Under the pieces are notes generated by a model, which searched no databases, had not been told where the DNA came from, and saw nothing but the letters and a program-made list of their open reading frames with translations. A DNA stretch of 20,000 nt, taken from assembly GCA_016192455.1 (NCBI GenBank), contig JACPUC010000012.1, forward strand, positions 109,735-129,734, read 5' to 3'. This DNA comes from Candidatus Tectimicrobiota bacterium (GTDB taxonomy: Bacteria; JACPUC01). Each line of letters opens with the position of its first letter. The first letter of the stretch is position 1. A program made the position numbers and the translations under genes. Shown here in pieces: positions 2,472-12,457 of this stretch.

Positions 2472-3761
2472 TCATGAACCGCGTGCTGCCGCGGCAGCGG
2501 TGGCGGCGGCCGCCACCGGGAGGATGGGGCTGACGGTGAAGCGCAGGGCGCGGTGGGCTTGGCGCAGAGCCTGCTCGACCTGCTGCGGCGAGTCGCCGCG
2601 GGCGAAGATGAAGCCGAGGTAGCTCCCCCCCTCCGGCAGCGGCAGGAGCGCCTGCGAGCTCTTCGCGGTGATGGTCACCTCGTCAATGCCGTCGACGGCG
2701 CGGGCGGCCTCAATCCCCTCCACCCGCTCGTAGATGCCGGGCCGTTCAATCGGCAGCATCATCACCCCGACGGCCCGATCCTCCCGCCGCGGCTCGATCT
2801 CCAGGCCGAGGGCGTGGCGGATGATGAGCTCCTCCAACGACATGCCGGTGCCGAAGCGCAGGGTGCGCGAGCAGAGTCCACCGATGGCGCGCGCGGCGAT
2901 CTCGAGGATGCGCGGCCCCTGCGGCGTCAGGCGCAGCTCGGCGTGAATCGGTCCGCGCACGAGCCCCAGGGCGCGGCAGGCGCGGTCGACCTCCTTGACC
3001 ATGGCGGCCTGCGTGGCCGCGTCTTCGCGTGACGGCGTGACGAAGAGCGTCTCCTCGAAGAACGGCCCCTCGAGCGGGTCGGGCTTGTCGAAGATCGCCA
3101 GGACGCGCAGCACGCCGTTGTCCAGCAACCCCTCCAGCGTCGCCTCGCGCCCCTCAAGGTAGCCCTCGACGAGAATCCAGTCGTCCGCCTCATCGCGCCG
3201 CACGCGCACCTCCGCGGTCCGCAGGAGCGCCGCAACGCGGCGGAAGGCGACGACGAACTCCGCCGGCCCGCCGGCCCGCACCACCCCGCGGCTGGCGGAG
3301 AGCGCCAACGGCTTCAGCACGCAGGGGTAGGCCACCTGGCGCGCGGCGTCCGCCGCATCGGCGTCCAGGGGGAAGCGCGCGAACGGCGGCACGCTCACGC
3401 CCGCGGCGCGCAGGAGCCGGCGCGCCAGGTACTTGTTGCGGCAGGCCGCGGCCGCGGTACTCGGGTTGTGGGGCAAGCCGAGCCGGGCGCTGGCCAGCGC
3501 CGCCGTGCGCACCGGCAGGTCGCCCACCGCCACGATGCCGTGGATGGGATGCTCGCGGGCGTACCGTTCGATGACGCGCGCCGCCGTCCGCGGTTGGTTG
3601 AACCGCAGCGCCAGGGCGCCATCGTGCCAGGGGTCGTCGAGGGAGTGGCAATGATCGGTGCCGAGGGTCACCGCCACGCCGAGCCGCTGGGCGGCGGCGG
3701 CGAAGTCGCGTCCCTCGTACCCCGTCGTGGCGAAGAGGAGGAGGAGCCGTTTCTCATCCAT
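2472..3761 (-). CDS. ATP-grasp domain protein, L-amino-acid-ligase-like
   Basis: Motifs CRNKY..R, YPCVLKPLALSASRGV, ILVEGYLEGRE, HAELRL, LEIAAR and a C-terminal LAL-type domain (VEGIEAARAVDGI...YLGFIFARG). Start placed at MDEKRLLLL (3761); in-frame upstream starts exist up to 3830. Confidence 0.88.
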   Translation of the reverse strand: MDEKRLLLLFATTGYEGRDFAAAAQRLGVAVTLGTDHCHSLDDPWHDGALALRFNQPRTAARVIERYAREHPIHGIVAVGDLPVRTAALASARLGLPHNPSTAAAACRNKYLARRLLRAAGVSVPPFARFPLDADAADAARQVAYPCVLKPLALSASRGVVRAGGPAEFVVAFRRVAALLRTAEVRVRRDEADDWILVEGYLEGREATLEGLLDNGVLRVLAIFDKPDPLEGPFFEETLFVTPSREDAATQAAMVKEVDRACRALGLVRGPIHAELRLTPQGPRILEIAARAIGGLCSRTLRFGTGMSLEELIIRHALGLEIEPRREDRAVGVMMLPIERPGIYERVEGIEAARAVDGIDEVTITAKSSQALLPLPEGGSYLGFIFARGDSPQQVEQALRQAHRALRFTVSPILPVAAAATAAAAARGS

Positions 3762-3884
3762 GGCGCCGATCTTCCCGCGGGAACGTGAGGTCATCCTGAT
3801 TGAGCCGGCAGCCATGCTACCCCGGCGCACCTAGGCCTCGGGCGTACCCGATCATCCCTCTGCTGCCAGTCGATCTCTACGCGG

Positions 3885-5300
3885 TTACAGGAGAGCTACC
3901 TGCTCTTCGGTCGGTTCAGCTCAGCAGTACCAGGGCTCGTTCAGGAAGGGGATGCCCTGCCTCAGCGTGCCGCGCATCGCCAGCGACGGCGGCGTCCGCC
4001 CCGCCGCCTCGTGGGCCGCCTGCCAGAGCTGCGCAAAGAGCCGCCGCCGCGTCAGGCCCTGCTGCTCCCCCTCCTTGACGAGCGCCTGCAGGGTCCAGCA
4101 GAGCGTATCCAGGCGGGGATCGCTGTGCGACCAGGGGTAGGAGAGGGAGTCGGGAGCAAAGTCGCCGACCAGGCGCTGCACCTCCTGCAGCTCCAACAGC
4201 CGCGACCCGGCAGGGAGGAGGAGACGCATGGCGAGCTGGATGGGCGCCACGTTCTCGACCAGGTCGAGCTCGACGAGCACCCGCAGGAGCTCCAGGTAGG
4301 TCTCGAAGGTCGTCCAGGGCGAGAAGGGAACGAAGGTCGGCGCCAGCGTCACCCCCGCCTCGCGGCAGCGCGCCGCCACGCGGTGGAAATCGTCGCGCGT
4401 ATGCCCCTTGTCGAGGAGGCGGAGGAAACGATCATCGACCGACTCGACGGCGCTGGTCACGAAAGCGCAGCCGGTGCGGCGCAGCGTTTCGAGGTGCTCC
4501 GCATGCCGCAGCAGGTGCTGCACCTTGATCGTCACATCGTAGGTGAGGGCGGGGAACTCGTCGTGCAGCGCTTCCACCAGGGCCAGCGCGTGCCGCACGC
4601 CGTTGAAGAAGTCGGGATCGCCGAAAGTGAGGTGCCGCGCCCCCGCCGCCACCTGCTGCCGGATGTCGGCCAGGACCACCTGGCGCTGCACGATGCGGAA
4701 CTGTCCGTTGTAGACGGGCACGATGGGGCAATGCCGGCAGCGGTGCTTGCAGCCGCGGCTCGCCTCGGTGTAGCCGGCGAGGCGCGTCTCGCCATCGGGG
4801 AGGAGGAGCTGGGCGTAGCGATGCAGGGGGGGCAGCCCACGGCGCTCGGGCACCTTGAAGGGGAGCTTGTCGAGGGAGATGACCGGCTCGCCCTGCGATT
4901 GGTCGCGGCGCGCGGCGCCCGGGGAGGCGCCGGCGAGACGCAGGCGCTCCACCATGCGCACCAGGCCGGGTTCGAACTCGCCGCCCAGGATGGTCTGCGC
5001 CCCGAGCCGCCTGAGGTACGCCTCGTTCATCGGCGCGTAGAGTCCGTAGAAGCAGAGGTGCGCGCGGGGATTGAGTTGCCTCACCCTGTCGAGCAGGCGC
5101 GCCGCCAGCTTGGTGGCGGTGTGCATCGGCACGTAGAAGGCCACCGCATCGGCACAACTCACCTCGTCCTCGCGCAGCGGCTCCTTCGCCAAGTCCTGGC
5201 AGGAGACGGCGACGCCCGCCTGCGTCAGCCACGCCGCGGGCGAGGCGAGGCCGAAGGGCTGGCGGCCGAGGTCGTAGGTGGAGATGAGGACAACCCGCAT
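3885..5300 (-). CDS. CUAEP/CCAEP-tail radical SAM selenoprotein (471 aa if the UGA at 3921-3923 is read as Sec)
   Basis: CxxxCxxC motif (SRGCKHRCRHCP), N-terminal B12-binding-like domain, TFGDPDF. The 3' end reads TGG TAC TGC TGA GCT GAA CCG ACC GAA GAG CAG GTA GCT CTC CTG TAA = WYC-U-AEPTEEQVALL*. Confidence 0.9.
3892..3906 (-). promoter_or_regulatory. Putative bacterial SECIS hairpin
   Basis: Minus strand AGAGC-AGGUA-GCUCU: a 5-bp stem with a G-containing loop that begins 20 nt after the in-frame UGA. Confidence 0.65.
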
Positions 5301-5372
5301 GGGATCGGACGTTTCTGAACGGCGCTCGGGTGAGCCTAATGAGGGATGGGAGGCCGGCCTCGCGGCGCCGGC

Positions 5373-5678
5373 TTACATCTTGCCTTGCGGCGGCACATAG
5401 CCCGGCGGCAACGCGGCATCCTCGCCAAAGAAGAACTCTTCCATCTGAGAGAGGATGAGCTCGTCCGATTCAGGCTCCGACGGCGTGAGCCGATACTCAT
5501 TGATGACCATGATGAGGAACTCCTTCCACATCTCCCACGCCCGCTGCGAGACGTTCTCGTAGATGCGCGCGGCCAGCTCTTCCGGAGCCATCAGCTTGAC
5601 GATCTCGTAGGTCGTCTCATCAATGCCGGGGAGCTCTTCTGACAGCTTGATGCACTTCACCATGCGCGGCTCGGCCAT
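5373..5678 (-). CDS. yggX: Fe(II)-trafficking / oxidative damage protection protein YggX
   Basis: RMVKCIKL...RIYENVSQRAW..W....MVINEYRL...QMEEFFFG......GYVPP is the YggX signature. RBS AAGGAG lies before ATG 5678. 101 aa. Confidence 0.9.
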   Translation of the reverse strand: MAEPRMVKCIKLSEELPGIDETTYEIVKLMAPEELAARIYENVSQRAWEMWKEFLIMVINEYRLTPSEPESDELILSQMEEFFFGEDAALPPGYVPPQGKM

Positions 5679-5744
5679 ACCGTGTCTCCTTGTGGCGAAA
5701 CCCTTGCGCCAACGACCATGCGAAGGCGGCCCATCCTGAGCTTC

Positions 5745-5772
5745 AGTATAGTACACGAGCGGGGGGGAACAA
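5745..5772 (-). promoter_or_regulatory. Putative sigma70 promoter upstream of yggX
   Basis: Minus strand TTGTTC-16 nt-TATACT, about 67 nt upstream of the yggX start. Confidence 0.45.
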
Positions 5773-5810
5773 GCGCTTCTGCCGCCGCGATGTCGCGCCG
5801 CCCCGCCCCC

Positions 5811-6671
5811 TCAGCGGAAGAGCGTCACCAGGCTGGCGCCCAGCACGATCAGGCAGGTGGCGGCGACCACCCGCGTCGTGATGAACTCGCTGTCGCGCAG
5901 CAGCAGGAGGCTGAGGACCATCGAGAAGAGCGGCGCGGTGTTCATGAGGGTGGTCACCACGATGATGTTGCCGAGCTGCAAGGACTTGAAATTGGCGTAG
6001 ACCGCGACCAGGGAGAAGACGCCGGCGCCGCTGAAATGCAGGAGACTCCGCCTGTCGCCGACGAGACCGCGGCCGTGGCTGCGCAGCAGGGAGACGCCGA
6101 CGAGGCAGAGCATGCCGCTCGTGATGGTGATCGCCGCGCCGGCCATGGCATGCGGGTAGAGCTGCAGGCCAAGCTGGCGGAGATTGACCGACACGCCGAA
6201 GGTCAGGGCCGAGAGAATCGGGAAGAGGAAGGCCGCCCGTTGCCTCCGGCCTTCCTCGCGTGGCGCCGTGAGCAGCGCCACGCCACCCACGCAGACGAGG
6301 GTCCCGAGCACCAGCGGCAGCCGCGCCGGCTCGCCGAACGCCGCGATGGCGACCAGCATGGTCACGATCGGCATGGTGGCGATCACCGGGTGGGCGCGCG
6401 TGACGCCCAGCCGGGCGATGCCAAGGAAGCCGAAGTACCTCCCCAGCGCCGGCGAGAGCAACCCGGCGAGGATGAAGATGACGAGGGCCTTGGCGGGGAT
6501 GCTGTCGATCCCACCCGTCCCCAGGAGGATCGACCAGTAGACGAGAATGTTCACGAAGGTGGAGATGACCGTTGCGGAGATCGGTGAGGCGGTGCGCATG
6601 CCCCACTTGGCGAAGATGTTGCTGGCGCCGAACCCGAAGGCGCTGAGCAGGGCGAAGGCCACCGCGAGCAT
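5811..6671 (-). CDS. DMT/EamA family transporter
   Basis: About 286 aa of repeated hydrophobic segments in two EamA halves (ALLSAFGFGASNIFAK...GIARLGVTRAHPV..TMP; ..LQLGNIIVVTTLMNTAPLF). Start moved to ATG 6671, which has GAGG upstream. Confidence 0.9.
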   Translation of the reverse strand: MLAVAFALLSAFGFGASNIFAKWGMRTASPISATVISTFVNILVYWSILLGTGGIDSIPAKALVIFILAGLLSPALGRYFGFLGIARLGVTRAHPVIATMPIVTMLVAIAAFGEPARLPLVLGTLVCVGGVALLTAPREEGRRQRAAFLFPILSALTFGVSVNLRQLGLQLYPHAMAGAAITITSGMLCLVGVSLLRSHGRGLVGDRRSLLHFSGAGVFSLVAVYANFKSLQLGNIIVVTTLMNTAPLFSMVLSLLLLRDSEFITTRVVAATCLIVLGASLVTLFR

Positions 6672-6892
6672 GGTTGCCTCGACAGCGGAGAGCAGGGTGC
6701 GGCGCCGAGCGAGGCCGCGGAGGCGCCCGCGCGGCCGCCGGGCAGGCGAGCGCCGGTGGACCGCCGCGAAGTTTCGCGCCATACTTCCGGCCGGCGTTGC
6801 CGGCGACGGCCCCTGAAGGGGATCGGGGCGCCCCCCACCGGGCCGGGCAGCTCCGCAGGCCCGCCCGCCGCCCTCGGCCGCGAGGAGGTACG

Positions 6893-8284
6893 ATGACCGT
6901 CGATCTCGCCATTGTCAATGGTACGGTGGTCACACCCGCCGGCCCTCAGCCGCTCACGGTCGCGGTGCGCCAGGAACGTATCGTTGCCCTCAGCGATCGG
7001 GCGCATTGCCCCGCGGCGCGCGAGATCCTCGACGCGAGCGATCTGCACGTGCTTCCCGGGCTGGTGGAGGGGCACGTCCACTTCCGTGAACCGGGCCTGA
7101 CTCAGAAGGAGGACTTCGGCAGCGGCTCGGCGGCCGCGGTCTGCGGCGGGGTGACGACGGTGATCGACATGCCGAACACCGTGCCGCCCACCGCCGACGC
7201 GCAGAGCCTGCGGCAAAAGCAAGCCCTGGCGGAGGCCAAGTCGTTGGTTGATTTCGGGCTGCTGGGGGTCATCCTGCCGAACAACCTGCGGCAGCTCCGC
7301 GGCCTGGTGGAGGCCGGCGCCCTGGGGTTGAAGGTCTTCATGGGGATGACGGTGGGCAATCTGCCGGCGCCCGAGGACGGCGACATCCTCGAGGCCTGGA
7401 GGCTGGCCGCAGAGCTGGGAATTCCGGTGGCGGTGCACGCCGAGAGCAGCGTCCTTGTGCACCACTGCACCGAACGGCTGCGCGCCGGCGGCCGCAGCGA
7501 CGCCCTGGCGCACTATGAAGCCCGCCCCGAGATCGCCGAAGAGGAGGCGATCCAGCGCGCCATCCTCCTGGCGGCGGCGGCGGGCGCGCGCCTGCACGTC
7601 CTGCACGTCAGCACGGCCCAGGGGGCGGCGCTGGTGGGGGCGGCGAAACGCCGCGGCGGCGCGGTGAGCGCCGAGACGACGCCGCACTACCTGCTCTTGC
7701 AGAGCGCCGACGCCGCGCGCCTCGGCAACACCATGAAGATCAACCCGCCGGTGCGCGCCGCCGGCCACGCGGAGCAGCTCTGGCAGGCCCTGCGGGGCGG
7801 CGCGATTGACAGCATCGCCACCGACCACGCTCCCCACCTGCCGGAAGAGAAGCGCCGGCGGAACGTCTGGGAGGCCCCGTCGGGGTTCCCCGGCGTGGAG
7901 ACAGCCCTCCCCCTCATGCTCACCCAGGTGAACGCCGGGCGCATGCGCCTCGAGGAGTACGTGCGCTGGCACTGCGAGAACCCGGCGCGCATCTGGGGAC
8001 TCTACCCCCGCAAAGGGGTGATCCAGGTCGGCAGCGACGCCGACCTGACCCTCGTCGATCTCTCCCGCCGCGACGTCATCAGGGCGGCGAACCTGCACAG
8101 CAAGAGCAAGGTAACGCCCTATGAGGGGTGGGAGGTGCAAGGCGTGCCGGTCTGCACCCTGGTGCGGGGCCAGATCGTCATGCGGGAGGGACAGCTCGTG
8201 GGCAGGCCGCGGGGACGGATGCTCTGGCCAAGCCGCGAGGCAAGGGCGGGCAGGGCCTCTGATGACGCCGCGCGACTCGCATGA
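6893..8284 (+). CDS. Cyclic amidohydrolase, allantoinase (AllB) / type I dihydroorotase family
   Basis: Motifs PGLVEGHVHFREPG, GGVTTVIDMPNT, KVFM, HAE, LHVS, ETTPHYL, KINPPVR, ATDHAPH and APSGFPGVE. RBS GAGGAGG before ATG 6893. Confidence 0.92.
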   Translation: MTVDLAIVNGTVVTPAGPQPLTVAVRQERIVALSDRAHCPAAREILDASDLHVLPGLVEGHVHFREPGLTQKEDFGSGSAAAVCGGVTTVIDMPNTVPPTADAQSLRQKQALAEAKSLVDFGLLGVILPNNLRQLRGLVEAGALGLKVFMGMTVGNLPAPEDGDILEAWRLAAELGIPVAVHAESSVLVHHCTERLRAGGRSDALAHYEARPEIAEEEAIQRAILLAAAAGARLHVLHVSTAQGAALVGAAKRRGGAVSAETTPHYLLLQSADAARLGNTMKINPPVRAAGHAEQLWQALRGGAIDSIATDHAPHLPEEKRRRNVWEAPSGFPGVETALPLMLTQVNAGRMRLEEYVRWHCENPARIWGLYPRKGVIQVGSDADLTLVDLSRRDVIRAANLHSKSKVTPYEGWEVQGVPVCTLVRGQIVMREGQLVGRPRGRMLWPSREARAGRASDDAARLA

Positions 8285-10546: not shown

Positions 10547-12457
10547 ATGTACCTCTCGGCGCCCCTTGCACATTGGTCGGCGCGTCGTGCCCTGATGTTC
10601 CTCGCCCTCCTACCGGCCCTCCTTGCCGGCTGCACGTCCGACACCTCCCCCGGCGCTGGGGGCCCTCGTCCGCGGCTGATCGCCGTGCGCGCCGTGCCCG
10701 CCAAGCCAGGACAGCTTGAGCGCTCCATCACCAGTACCGGGACGACCTTCCCGCTCGCCGAGGTGAAGATCATGCCGCGCACTGATGGGCAGATCGCCAC
10801 GATCACGGTGCGCGAGGGGAGCGCGGTGCGGAAAGGCGACCTCCTCATCCAGCTCGATGATGCCATTGCCAGCCACCAACTGGCGCTGGCCGGGGCCGAG
10901 CTGGGAGCGGCGCGGGCGCGCCTGAAGAAGCTGCGCGCCGGGAACCTGCCCGAGGAGATCAAGCGGGCCGAAGCCGAGATGCGCCAGAGCCGCGAGGCGG
11001 TGAACCGGACGAAGGCCGAGCTGGCCTCGGCGCAGGCGCAGCTCCATGAGGCGAAGGAGAACCTGGCCGCCTTCGAGGACCTCTTCCGGCAGGGGGTCGT
11101 GAGCTCGCAGCGCCGACTGAACTGGCAGACGACGGTGGGGACCACGACCGCGCTCCTCGCCGAGAAAGCCGCCAAGCTGCGCGAGCAAGACGAGCAACTC
11201 GCGGTGGCCGAGGAGAAGCTGGTCCTGGTGCGACGCGGCTCGCGCAGCGAAGATATCGAAGCGGCGGCCAACGAGGTGCAGCGCGCCGAGGCGAACGAGC
11301 GGCTCCTGCGGACGCGGCTCGAGTACACGAAGATCACTGCTCCCTTCGCCGGCATCATCGCTGAGCGACTCGTCGAGGAAGGCGATCTCGCCTCCCTCGG
11401 CAAGCATCTGCTGACCCTCGTCGATCTTGCCGAGCTGCGCGCGCGCGCGCCGGTCTCGGAGATCGACCTGCCGGACCTGCGCGTGGGCCAGGACGCGACG
11501 ATCCACTTCGACGCCTTCCCCAAGGGGGTGTTCCATGGCCGCATCGCCAGCATCTTCCCCACCATCGATCCGGTCTCCCGCCAGGGGACCGTGGAGGTGG
11601 TGTTGCCGAATGCGAGCGGGGAGCTCAAAGCGGGCCTCTTTGCGCGCCTGAGCATGAGTCTCGGCAAGCGATCGTCGGCGCTGCTCATCCCGCGCAGCGC
11701 ATTGGCCCGATTGGCGGACGGGGAGATGTCGGTCTTTGTGCTTGATCCGGCGGCTGGCGAGGGAGGCCCCCCTGGCGGCCCGCGCGCGCAGGGGGCCGGA
11801 GGAGGCGCGGCGGGAGCGGGGGGAAAGCCGGGGGGGAGGCAGCGACCGCCGAGCCAGGGAACCGCCGAGGCTCCCGGCCTTGCGGCGAAGCGTCCGCAGG
11901 ATGTGGCGATGCGCCCGCCCGGCGCGGCAACCGCTGACCACGGTGGCCCCGCCGCCGAGGGAGGGAGGGGGGAATTACCCGCGAACCGGGAGAGTGCCTC
12001 GGAGCGGCAGGAGCGCGTCACCATGCAGTTCGGCGTCGATGGCGTGGTGAGCCAGGCGGAGGCCGCGGACCCCGGCGCCTCCCAGGGACGGCCGCAGGCG
12101 ACACGCGGAGAGGCGCCGGGCGGGGCGGCGCCGAGCGACGGCCAGAAGGGCGGCGCGCCGGCTGGCGAAGGCCGGGCGAGGCCGCGTGGGCAGGCGGTGC
12201 AACCGGGCGCTGCTGGGGGAGCGCCGCGGGGTGGTCCCCCGAGCCGCGTCCCTGGGCAGGCAGGAGGCGGGCCGGGCGGAGGCGGACCGGGCGGGCCGCA
12301 GGGACCGCTCTACACCGTGCGGCGCGTGGTCGTGCAGGTGGGTCTGGTGCAGGACAACACCGCCGAAGTGCTGGGCGGCCTGGGCGAGAATCAGCTCGTC
12401 CTGCTCTCTGGGCTCAGCGAGATCCCTGTCGGCGCGCGCGTCCGCGTGCGTGAGTAG
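10547..12457 (+). CDS. RND efflux periplasmic adaptor (MFP) lipoprotein with a large low-complexity insertion
   Basis: Lipobox LAGC (C29), lipoyl halves GQIATITVREGSAVRKGDLL and ITAPFAGII..VEEGD, a long coiled coil, IFPTIDPVSR, LKAGLF, and terminal EVLGGLGENQLV. Confidence 0.93.
   Translation: MYLSAPLAHWSARRALMFLALLPALLAGCTSDTSPGAGGPRPRLIAVRAVPAKPGQLERSITSTGTTFPLAEVKIMPRTDGQIATITVREGSAVRKGDLLIQLDDAIASHQLALAGAELGAARARLKKLRAGNLPEEIKRAEAEMRQSREAVNRTKAELASAQAQLHEAKENLAAFEDLFRQGVVSSQRRLNWQTTVGTTTALLAEKAAKLREQDEQLAVAEEKLVLVRRGSRSEDIEAAANEVQRAEANERLLRTRLEYTKITAPFAGIIAERLVEEGDLASLGKHLLTLVDLAELRARAPVSEIDLPDLRVGQDATIHFDAFPKGVFHGRIASIFPTIDPVSRQGTVEVVLPNASGELKAGLFARLSMSLGKRSSALLIPRSALARLADGEMSVFVLDPAAGEGGPPGGPRAQGAGGGAAGAGGKPGGRQRPPSQGTAEAPGLAAKRPQDVAMRPPGAATADHGGPAAEGGRGELPANRESASERQERVTMQFGVDGVVSQAEAADPGASQGRPQATRGEAPGGAAPSDGQKGGAPAGEGRARPRGQAVQPGAAGGAPRGGPPSRVPGQAGGGPGGGGPGGPQGPLYTVRRVVVQVGLVQDNTAEVLGGLGENQLVLLSGLSEIPVGARVRVRE

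Follow-up and report, generated by a model that had tools for sequence, protein, structure and literature searches.

A recurrent gene module of a CUAEP-tail radical SAM selenoprotein, an amino acid ligase-type ATP-grasp enzyme and an iron-sulphur helper, possibly related in chemistry to ArsL

In a 20,000-nucleotide stretch of the genome of a Candidatus Tectimicrobiota bacterium (positions 109,735 to 129,734 of contig JACPUC010000012.1, assembly GCA_016192455.1; hereafter 'the window'), three neighbouring minus-strand genes encode the Fe(2+)-trafficking protein YggX, a radical S-adenosylmethionine (SAM) enzyme with a C-terminal CUAEP tail and an ATP-grasp enzyme that we assign to the L-amino-acid ligase (LAL) type. 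Across several phylum-level groups a module recurs that combines a CUAEP radical SAM enzyme, usually a selenoprotein, with an LAL-type ligase and a helper protein for Fe or Fe-S. Our preferred reading, to which we give a probability of about 0.45, is that the three proteins act as one functional module that makes an amino-acid-derived small molecule in the cell: the radical SAM enzyme would transfer SAM's 3-amino-3-carboxypropyl (ACP) moiety in the manner of ArsL, the ligase would act on the product, and the helper would see to the upkeep of the radical enzyme. To our knowledge, no radical SAM enzyme of canonical fold other than ArsL is so far known to produce an ACP species, and ArsL occurs solely in arsenic gene clusters.

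RESULTS

The radical SAM gene and the ligase gene occur together

The radical SAM gene occupies positions 3885-5300 of the window (minus strand) and encodes 471 residues with the PF04055 domain. Its best family match is NF040546, the CUAEP/CCAEP-tail radical SAM (seleno)protein family, which it hits at 629.2 bits (cut-off 500), or at 622.6 bits when the genome is searched; the alignment spans model positions 1-467 of 468 and runs across an in-frame TGA codon. The ATP-grasp gene lies downstream on the same strand at 2472-3761 and encodes 429 residues, starting with MDEKRLLLL in agreement with the consensus of its orthologs. The protein carries PF13535 (ATP-grasp_4, 91.6 bits), PF18603 (LAL_C2, 63.9 bits) and PF18130 (ATPgrasp_N, 42.1 bits), and among solved structures BL00235 is nearest to it (3vot; residues 24-402 aligned at E 1.2e-42), with BacD (3vmm) next. 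The match to BL00235 and the LAL_C2 domain bear out the LAL-type assignment that the first-pass annotation had made. Cys147 (93%) and Cys297 (100%) are the only conserved cysteines of the ligase; with two alone, we rejected the idea that the ATP-grasp enzyme is itself an Fe-S client.

In one scan of species genomes, a gene for a relative of the radical SAM enzyme turned up in at least 590, and our neighbourhood counts use the best 80 loci plus one further locus (L008), 81 in all. The best 80 are mostly labelled Acidobacteriota, the others including loci labelled Methylomirabilota/NC10, Dormibacterota, Chloroflexota, Latescibacterota, Verrucomicrobiia and Entotheonella; among 40 genomes of the same domain as the host, one has the radical SAM family. 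By tblastn, a ligase ortholog (43-62% identical) lies beside the radical SAM gene in 65 of the 81 loci, almost always immediately downstream and on the same strand, and the adjacency of the two enzymes extends to loci labelled Methylomirabilota, Latescibacterota and Verrucomicrobiia and to the window's own isolated lineage. Of the 16 loci without a ligase, nine have under 1.3 kb of sequence beyond the radical SAM gene; for five of the other seven we searched the whole genome, and in four an ortholog is present elsewhere.

We also searched 301 genomes sampled from the phylum to which G042 belongs (G042 carries locus L066, labelled Acidobacteriota) and detected the radical SAM enzyme in 50 genomes, 49 of them over the cut-off, and the ligase ortholog in 55, plus one weak match of 31% identity. 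The two genes co-occur in 49 genomes; the radical SAM gene is found alone in one, the ligase gene alone in six (G068, G083, G122, G171, G181 and G309; five when the unpublished G068 is left out) and neither in 244, and in 28 of the 49 genomes carrying both the genes lie at most 5 kb apart. The association is asymmetric, with the ligase present in 49 of 50 radical SAM genomes and the radical SAM enzyme in 49 of 55 ligase genomes. Recurring as it does in 65 of 81 loci and in all but one of the radical SAM genomes, the pairing is more than a chance arrangement; it is also the co-occurrence on which the first-pass annotation had staked its proposed unit.

In five loci a DUF169 (PF02596) gene separates the radical SAM and ligase genes, and in one it follows the radical SAM gene (L084:4543-5262, L070:9529-10242, and further L024, L032, L044 and L092); such a gene may be a fourth, optional component of the module.

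The in-frame TGA is predicted to be read as selenocysteine

The reading frame of the radical SAM gene up to its TGA (codon 460, positions 3921-3923, minus strand) ends in NEPWYC. With the TGA read as selenocysteine (Sec), the protein continues to a tail of C459-U460-AEPTEEQVALL before a TAA stop. The host genome encodes tRNA-Sec, SelA (596 bits), SelB (366 bits) and SelD (389 bits). We compared the tail codon across 82 loci, namely the 80 from the genome scan, L008 and the window: it is TGA in 57, a Cys codon (TGC or TGT) in 24 and cut off in one.

A hairpin, AGAGC-AGGUA-GCUCU (3892-3906, minus strand), begins 14 nt past the TGA, and a hairpin at this distance recurs across the Sec-form loci. 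Its stem variants are compensatory (GGGACC/GGUCCC, GGAGC/GCUCC, CCGGCC/GGCCGG and, in the window, AGAGC/GCUCU), and its loops read AGUU or AGGUN. The 33-nt stretch has an average fold energy of -10.9 kcal/mol across 56 Sec forms, compared with -6.4 kcal/mol across 24 Cys forms of the same peptide (Mann-Whitney p = 6e-8, a value that is indicative only, since related genomes are not independent). Folded alone, the window's own 65 nt past the TGA are no stabler than shuffled sequences (z = +1.3); it is the comparison across loci, and not single-sequence folding, that makes the hairpin recognisable as a selenocysteine insertion sequence (SECIS), and we take it to be the SECIS element of this gene. 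Given the Sec machinery in the genome and the hairpin conserved behind the TGA of the Sec forms, we assign the TGA as a selenocysteine codon.

The host SelD gene (G000:C3:190907-191827, locus L009) has an in-frame TGA of its own within a full-length match, and SelD is probably itself a selenoprotein. A cultured organism also has the family: on the megaplasmid of Thermomicrobium roseum DSM 5159 (NC_011961.1; L160:7935-9440), a CUAEP gene is annotated as ending in TESWFC, the next codon being TGA and the following residues AEPLED, which we read as a selenocysteine form annotated as truncated. Its neighbours are genes for a pyridoxal phosphate-dependent aminotransferase and a major facilitator superfamily transporter, and a search of the megaplasmid found no ligase ortholog there.

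An Fe or Fe-S helper forms the third part of the module

The yggX gene (5373-5678, minus strand) encodes a 101-residue Fe(2+)-trafficking / oxidative damage protection protein that matches NF003817 (91.8 bits, cut-off 74) and PF04362 (87.8 bits, cut-off 27). The ATG is preceded by AGGAG at 5690-5686, and the protein is the single PF04362 match in its assembly (G000). A YggX homolog is present in 57 of the 81 related loci by tblastn, and in three loci, all without YggX (L033, L038 and L070), an NfuA-type gene (Fe-S_biosyn plus NifU) sits between the ligase and radical SAM genes. We assign YggX, or an NfuA-type carrier in its place, as the third conserved part of the module, which upholds the earlier proposal that YggX belongs to the unit.

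We surveyed the 4 kb on each side of 54 ligase genes from the 301-genome sample, leaving out G068. YggX is found near 24 of them, an Nfu-type gene near 20 and the radical SAM gene near 28, and one or other helper is near 44. Broken down by combination, YggX stands with the radical SAM gene at 19 ligase loci, Nfu alone at 14, Nfu with the radical SAM gene at six, YggX alone at five and the radical SAM gene alone at three, with none of the three at seven. Seven helper-less ligase loci adjoin genes for citrate synthase, 2-oxoglutarate dehydrogenase E1, malate synthase and enoyl-CoA hydratase. One of seven lone radical SAM loci has a helper (L058), and in G116 YggX adjoins the radical SAM gene. 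A tree of 94 ligases contains an Nfu-linked and a YggX-linked clade; at the separations of the two enzymes on this tree the helper was kept in about six independent cases and lost in about six, so that the raw helper counts overstate the signal. YggX as such occurs in 120 of the 301 genomes, one of which (G190) is unpublished. We rejected the idea that YggX adjacency is the relic of an aconitase-YggX pair: none of 20 YggX loci from module-free genomes has aconitase, Nfu, the ligase or the radical SAM gene within 6 kb.

The CUAEP radical SAM enzyme is related to ArsL

The second-best family of the radical SAM enzyme is the ArsL model NF040542 (287.7 bits, E 1.8e-85, residues 4-412), and proteins with an RCCLKC tail, encoded on Priestia and Bacillus plasmids, are 33-35% identical to it over residues 1-411. 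CUAEP proteins and two ArsL-family proteins have in common the sequence around the cluster motif and an FGDPDFFN or FIDADFFN stretch. A relationship to ArsL, which the first-pass annotation had put forward, is borne out by these matches, and we place the CUAEP family, on its sequence, as a sister family of ArsL. ArsL is reported to make an ACP species and methylthioadenosine, with arsenite bound by its tail (10.1101/2024.02.01.577332); a second source adds that all three tail cysteines bind arsenic and that an Fe-C(gamma) ACP organometallic species forms (10.64898/2026.04.29.721666).

On the plasmids of Priestia megaterium and Bacillus cereus (L161:2178-3999 and 6001-7275; L162:2139-3967 and 7001-8275) the RCCLKC-tail gene lies inside an arsenic island, and both ArsL-family loci hold arsenic-island genes. 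About 3 kb upstream of the plasmid ArsL-family gene, a small operon encodes a CMD-family protein, an ATP-grasp enzyme and ArsR (in the two records inspected out of 37). This ATP-grasp enzyme is 27% identical to the window ligase, and the ArsL branch, too, may have a ligase partner.

Conserved residues and predicted fold of the radical SAM enzyme

The CX3CX2C motif of the enzyme (C184, C188 and C191) is invariant in the family. The family tail follows the pattern C-U/C-A-E-P-T-x-x-Q and continues for 8 to 47 more residues; within it A461, E462 and P463 are invariant and Q467 is kept in at least 90%, in the Cys forms as well. Among 39 family members Cys83, Cys278 and His60 are likewise invariant, and Cys34 is found in 87%. 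These residues could constitute an additional site for a metal or a cluster.

An AlphaFold2 model from 39 sequences reached a predicted local distance difference test score of 88.3 and a predicted TM score of 0.88. Tail residues 445-471 are of low confidence, as expected of a mobile arm. Foldseek matched the model to AprD4, TsrM, OxsB, MgmA and CysS, then to MiaB and RimO (E 2.8e-18 to 1e-10, TM 0.55-0.67), which points to a predicted fold of a Rossmann-type N-terminal domain followed by the radical SAM barrel. A sequence search of solved structures gave no match at E 0.001 or better, a profile search of PDB sequences intended to place the N-domain cysteines on MiaB gave weak core matches only, and a Pfam scan of the protein found no B12-binding match.

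Layout of the locus and its neighbours

The minus strand at 2472-6671 holds four co-oriented genes, EamA, yggX, radical SAM and ATP-grasp, with intergenic spacings of 132, 72 and 123 bp in that order, just as first annotated. The first of them encodes an EamA/drug-metabolite transporter (5811-6671, minus strand; PF00892 in two stretches), whose start is the Met at codon 38 of a long open reading frame. Across the 81 related loci tblastn found no EamA homolog, nor any homolog of the neighbouring amidohydrolase, CBS protein, SthA or pyruvate dehydrogenase (PDH) beta subunit. We thus regard EamA as a local neighbour that falls outside the conserved module. The proposal that EamA exports the product of the unit fails on this count, and a study of ArsQ, the arsinothricin exporter, describes it as GntP-related rather than EamA-like (PMC8552651). 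The first-pass annotation had also suggested that a separate promoter before yggX might set EamA apart. The separation stands on the locus counts; the promoter itself is a possible feature matched by eye at 5745-5772 on the minus strand (TTGTTC at 5772-5767, a 16-nt spacer and TATACT at 5750-5745), and a consensus promoter and terminator scan reported nothing inside 2472-6671, this match included.

Directly 3' of the yggX stop lies a G+C-rich hairpin (GCCGGC, 8 nt, GCCGGC; 5353-5372, minus strand) without a T run, on which the terminator scan was silent; the window DNA is of high G+C. An Rfam scan at gathering thresholds gave no match in the window, and no tRNA was found in it. The flanking genes are ordinary: PDH E1 alpha and beta, a CBS pair, a dihydroorotase/allantoinase-like amidohydrolase, SthA, a resistance-nodulation-division (RND) pump and a UbiD decarboxylase. 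The RND adaptor (10547-12457) has 636 residues, and its HlyD-type domains stop near residue 400, leaving a long extra C-terminal part. The assembly comprises 4.46 Mb in 31 contigs and is 88% complete.

Central-carbon genes recur next to the module. PDH E1 alpha and beta are found at 1-1322 of the window, and further instances are at L066:4827-7508 and in L114, L118, L123 and L151; in 48 of 82 loci an aconitase gene and the radical SAM gene are divergently oriented. These neighbours may reflect lineage synteny.

DISCUSSION

In this study we describe a three-part module whose two enzymes occur together far beyond a single lineage, and we propose that it makes an amino-acid-derived small molecule. 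By analogy with ArsL, the radical SAM enzyme would cleave the C-gamma-S bond of SAM and pass the ACP group to a soft acceptor on the flexible Cys-Sec arm, and the family-specific, invariant Cys83 and Cys278 may help to hold the acceptor atom. Given the housekeeping context and the two-residue tail, the acceptor would more likely be an endogenous chalcogen, or another nucleophile made by the cell, than arsenic. The ATP-grasp ligase would join the methionine-like product to a second amino acid, and YggX, or NfuA in other lineages, would supply or repair the Fe-S cluster of the radical SAM enzyme. The asymmetry between the two enzymes fits a toxic intermediate that needs ligation; it also fits an order in which the ligase acts first.

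Several observations weigh against this proposal. The mode of SAM cleavage, the acceptor and the product are all extrapolated from a relative at 33-35% identity, and the 287.7 bits that the window enzyme scores with the ArsL model are below its cut-off of 450. The ArsL-family tail ends in KRCCLKC, with three Cys, where the CUAEP tail has two chalcogen residues. A tblastn search with ten Priestia/Bacillus arsenic-island proteins (two ArsR, ACR3, ArsC, ArsD, ArsN1, ArsI, MIP, a CMD protein and a CobW-like GTPase) found homologs in none of 139 module loci and none in the window. The partnership of the two enzymes also has its exceptions: G041 yielded no ligase ortholog, a profile search of its genome included, and G078, the radical-SAM-only genome of the sample, has by profile an 84-bit ligase paralog only. 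Conversely, the five ligase-only genomes (G068 excluded) are without a CUAEP radical SAM enzyme, the best match scoring 62 bits, and the ligase is thus not strictly dependent on it. A role of the helper purely in Fe-S supply for the radical SAM enzyme would not predict that 19 of the 26 ligase genes without an adjacent radical SAM gene retain a helper. Finally, as the ligase tree illustrates, related genomes share arrangements, and raw counts overstate the number of independent events.

The main rival explanation reverses the order of the enzymes: the ATP-grasp enzyme would make a dipeptide or similar scaffold, which the radical SAM enzyme would tailor by means of a 5'-deoxyadenosyl radical, with the Cys-Sec arm acting as a redox or hydrogen-atom donor rather than as a substrate holder. 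The distribution of the two genes, with a ligase in 49 of 50 radical SAM genomes and no radical SAM enzyme in six of 55 ligase genomes, is the usual pattern of a tailoring enzyme reliant on a scaffold enzyme, the protein has the canonical CX3CX2C motif and the PF04055 fold, and mammalian thioredoxin reductase carries a redox arm with a C-terminal Cys-Sec pair. However, ArsL, the closest characterised relative, has the same canonical motif yet makes an ACP species, its tail binds the acceptor, and the same asymmetry suits a toxic intermediate that requires ligation; we regard this order as unlikely on balance. Very improbable, to our minds, is that the substrate of the radical SAM enzyme and the ligase is a protein, or the conserved tail of the radical enzyme itself, and that no free metabolite is released. 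Some ATP-grasp enzymes do modify peptides, and the conservation of A461, E462, P463 and Q467 in Sec and Cys forms alike is more than a two-residue binding site needs; but the ligase carries LAL_C2 and can be aligned over its full length with an enzyme that joins free amino acids, and the recurrent neighbours, which we checked for a conserved small precursor gene, contain none.

Two further explanations centre on metals. If iron or Fe-S handling were the real function, a core of the ATP-grasp enzyme and YggX/NfuA would make or use a small iron-handling compound, and the radical SAM enzyme would be an accessory. In keeping with this, helpers are found near 44 of 54 ligase loci against 28 for the radical SAM gene; the pair of ligase and helper, there Nfu-type, persists in the five genomes that have no CUAEP radical SAM enzyme; aconitase is often divergent from the module and other tricarboxylic acid (TCA) cycle genes lie by lone ligases; and the YggX genes of module-free genomes are elsewhere, away from all of these genes at each of the 20 loci inspected. 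We nevertheless consider it distinctly unlikely, since on the ligase tree the helper was lost at separations about as often as it was kept, most helper genes are convergent with the ligase and hence not co-transcribed with it, the ligase has two conserved Cys only, YggX has a much wider distribution than the module (120 of 301 genomes compared with 55), and the TCA neighbours may be lineage synteny. A strictly arsinothricin-like pathway, in which the tail would bind As(III) or Sb(III) and an organo-metalloid amino acid would be made and masked as a dipeptide, draws on the sister relationship to ArsL, on the ATP-grasp gene about 3 kb from plasmid ArsL-family genes and on the rarity of the CU dipeptide, which one text places in metal-handling selenoproteins (10.1101/2022.07.06.499078). 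Against it stand the absence of any ArsR, ACR3, ArsC, ArsD, ArsI, ArsN1 or MIP homolog from the 139 loci and the window, the housekeeping character of the neighbours, the presence of the radical SAM enzyme in about one-sixth of the genomes of the whole phylum sample and the tail with two chalcogen residues rather than three Cys; such a pathway is highly unlikely.

Returning to our proposal of ACP transfer followed by ligation, it can be carried further, tentatively and with more doubt than the proposal itself. The CUAEP enzymes might be a second and far wider branch of ArsL-type chemistry, in which the arm, as a selenolate or a thiolate, would capture an Fe-bound ACP species, or a chalcogen or cluster-derived atom held on that arm would do so, with Cys83 and Cys278 forming a further metal or cluster site. 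An Fe-S centre consumed or damaged at each turnover would call for a dedicated YggX or NfuA, and a methionine-like, possibly selenium-bearing amino acid would be masked or finished as a dipeptide. If true, many soil and groundwater bacteria would have a new class of metabolite.

The CUAEP family is far commoner than ArsL (at least 590 species genomes, and 50 of the 301 in the phylum sample), mostly in the Sec form and with fixed partners. The identity of its product would show whether ArsL-type chemistry has a general role outside arsenic metabolism. One of the few Cys-Sec selenoproteins would thereby gain a function, and a novel amino acid or dipeptide might come to light in soil bacteria. 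Since the module is small, with three genes, and 24 of 82 loci carry Cys forms, heterologous expression is practical without selenoprotein machinery.

Comparison with known systems

A literature search for CUAEP/CCAEP proteins and for ArsL with ATP-grasp enzymes, in a coverage that leaves out most subscription journals, returned one relevant text (10.1101/2022.07.06.499078), which names NF040546 among a few Cys-Sec selenoprotein families and calls it uncharacterised. With the other CU selenoproteins of metal-handling systems treated there, namely HgcA variants, the SAO locus and MerT-like proteins, the CUAEP enzyme has in common the rare adjacent Cys-Sec pair; the folds of those proteins are unrelated to that of the radical SAM enzyme. 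The predicted fold, in turn, resembles those of AprD4, TsrM, OxsB and MgmA, which have an N-terminal cobalamin-type Rossmann domain, and of MiaB and RimO, but identity to these enzymes is 14-19% and the likeness is one of fold alone.

For the ligase, the closest counterparts are BL00235 and BacD. It aligns end to end with BL00235 and has the same ATP-grasp_4, LAL_C2 and ATPgrasp_N domains, whereas the BacD and DdaF equivalog models match weakly and far under their cut-offs (NF053745, 45.9 against 850 bits; NF041595, 36.5 against 840 bits), and its partner, unlike in the bacilysin or dapdiamide pathway, is a radical SAM selenoprotein. For the helper, a precedent is NfuA, which is reported to restore the sacrificial cluster of LipA, itself a radical SAM enzyme (PMC13692748). 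Here, too, a radical SAM module retains a gene for an Fe-S carrier at its side, with an NfuA-type gene replacing yggX in one clade; the two cases differ in that the helper gene is often nearer to the ligase gene than to the radical SAM gene.

The most instructive comparison is with ArsL itself. The CUAEP enzyme and ArsL have the same domain order, the same CX3CX2C motif and a Cys-rich C-terminal tail on a flexible end. They differ at the positions of Cys34, Cys83 and Cys278 of the CUAEP family, where the two ArsL-family proteins compared have Thr, Val and Val or Ile, and in the company they keep: the ArsL pathway includes ArsM and ArsQ, in place of which the CUAEP module has an ATP-grasp enzyme and YggX or NfuA.

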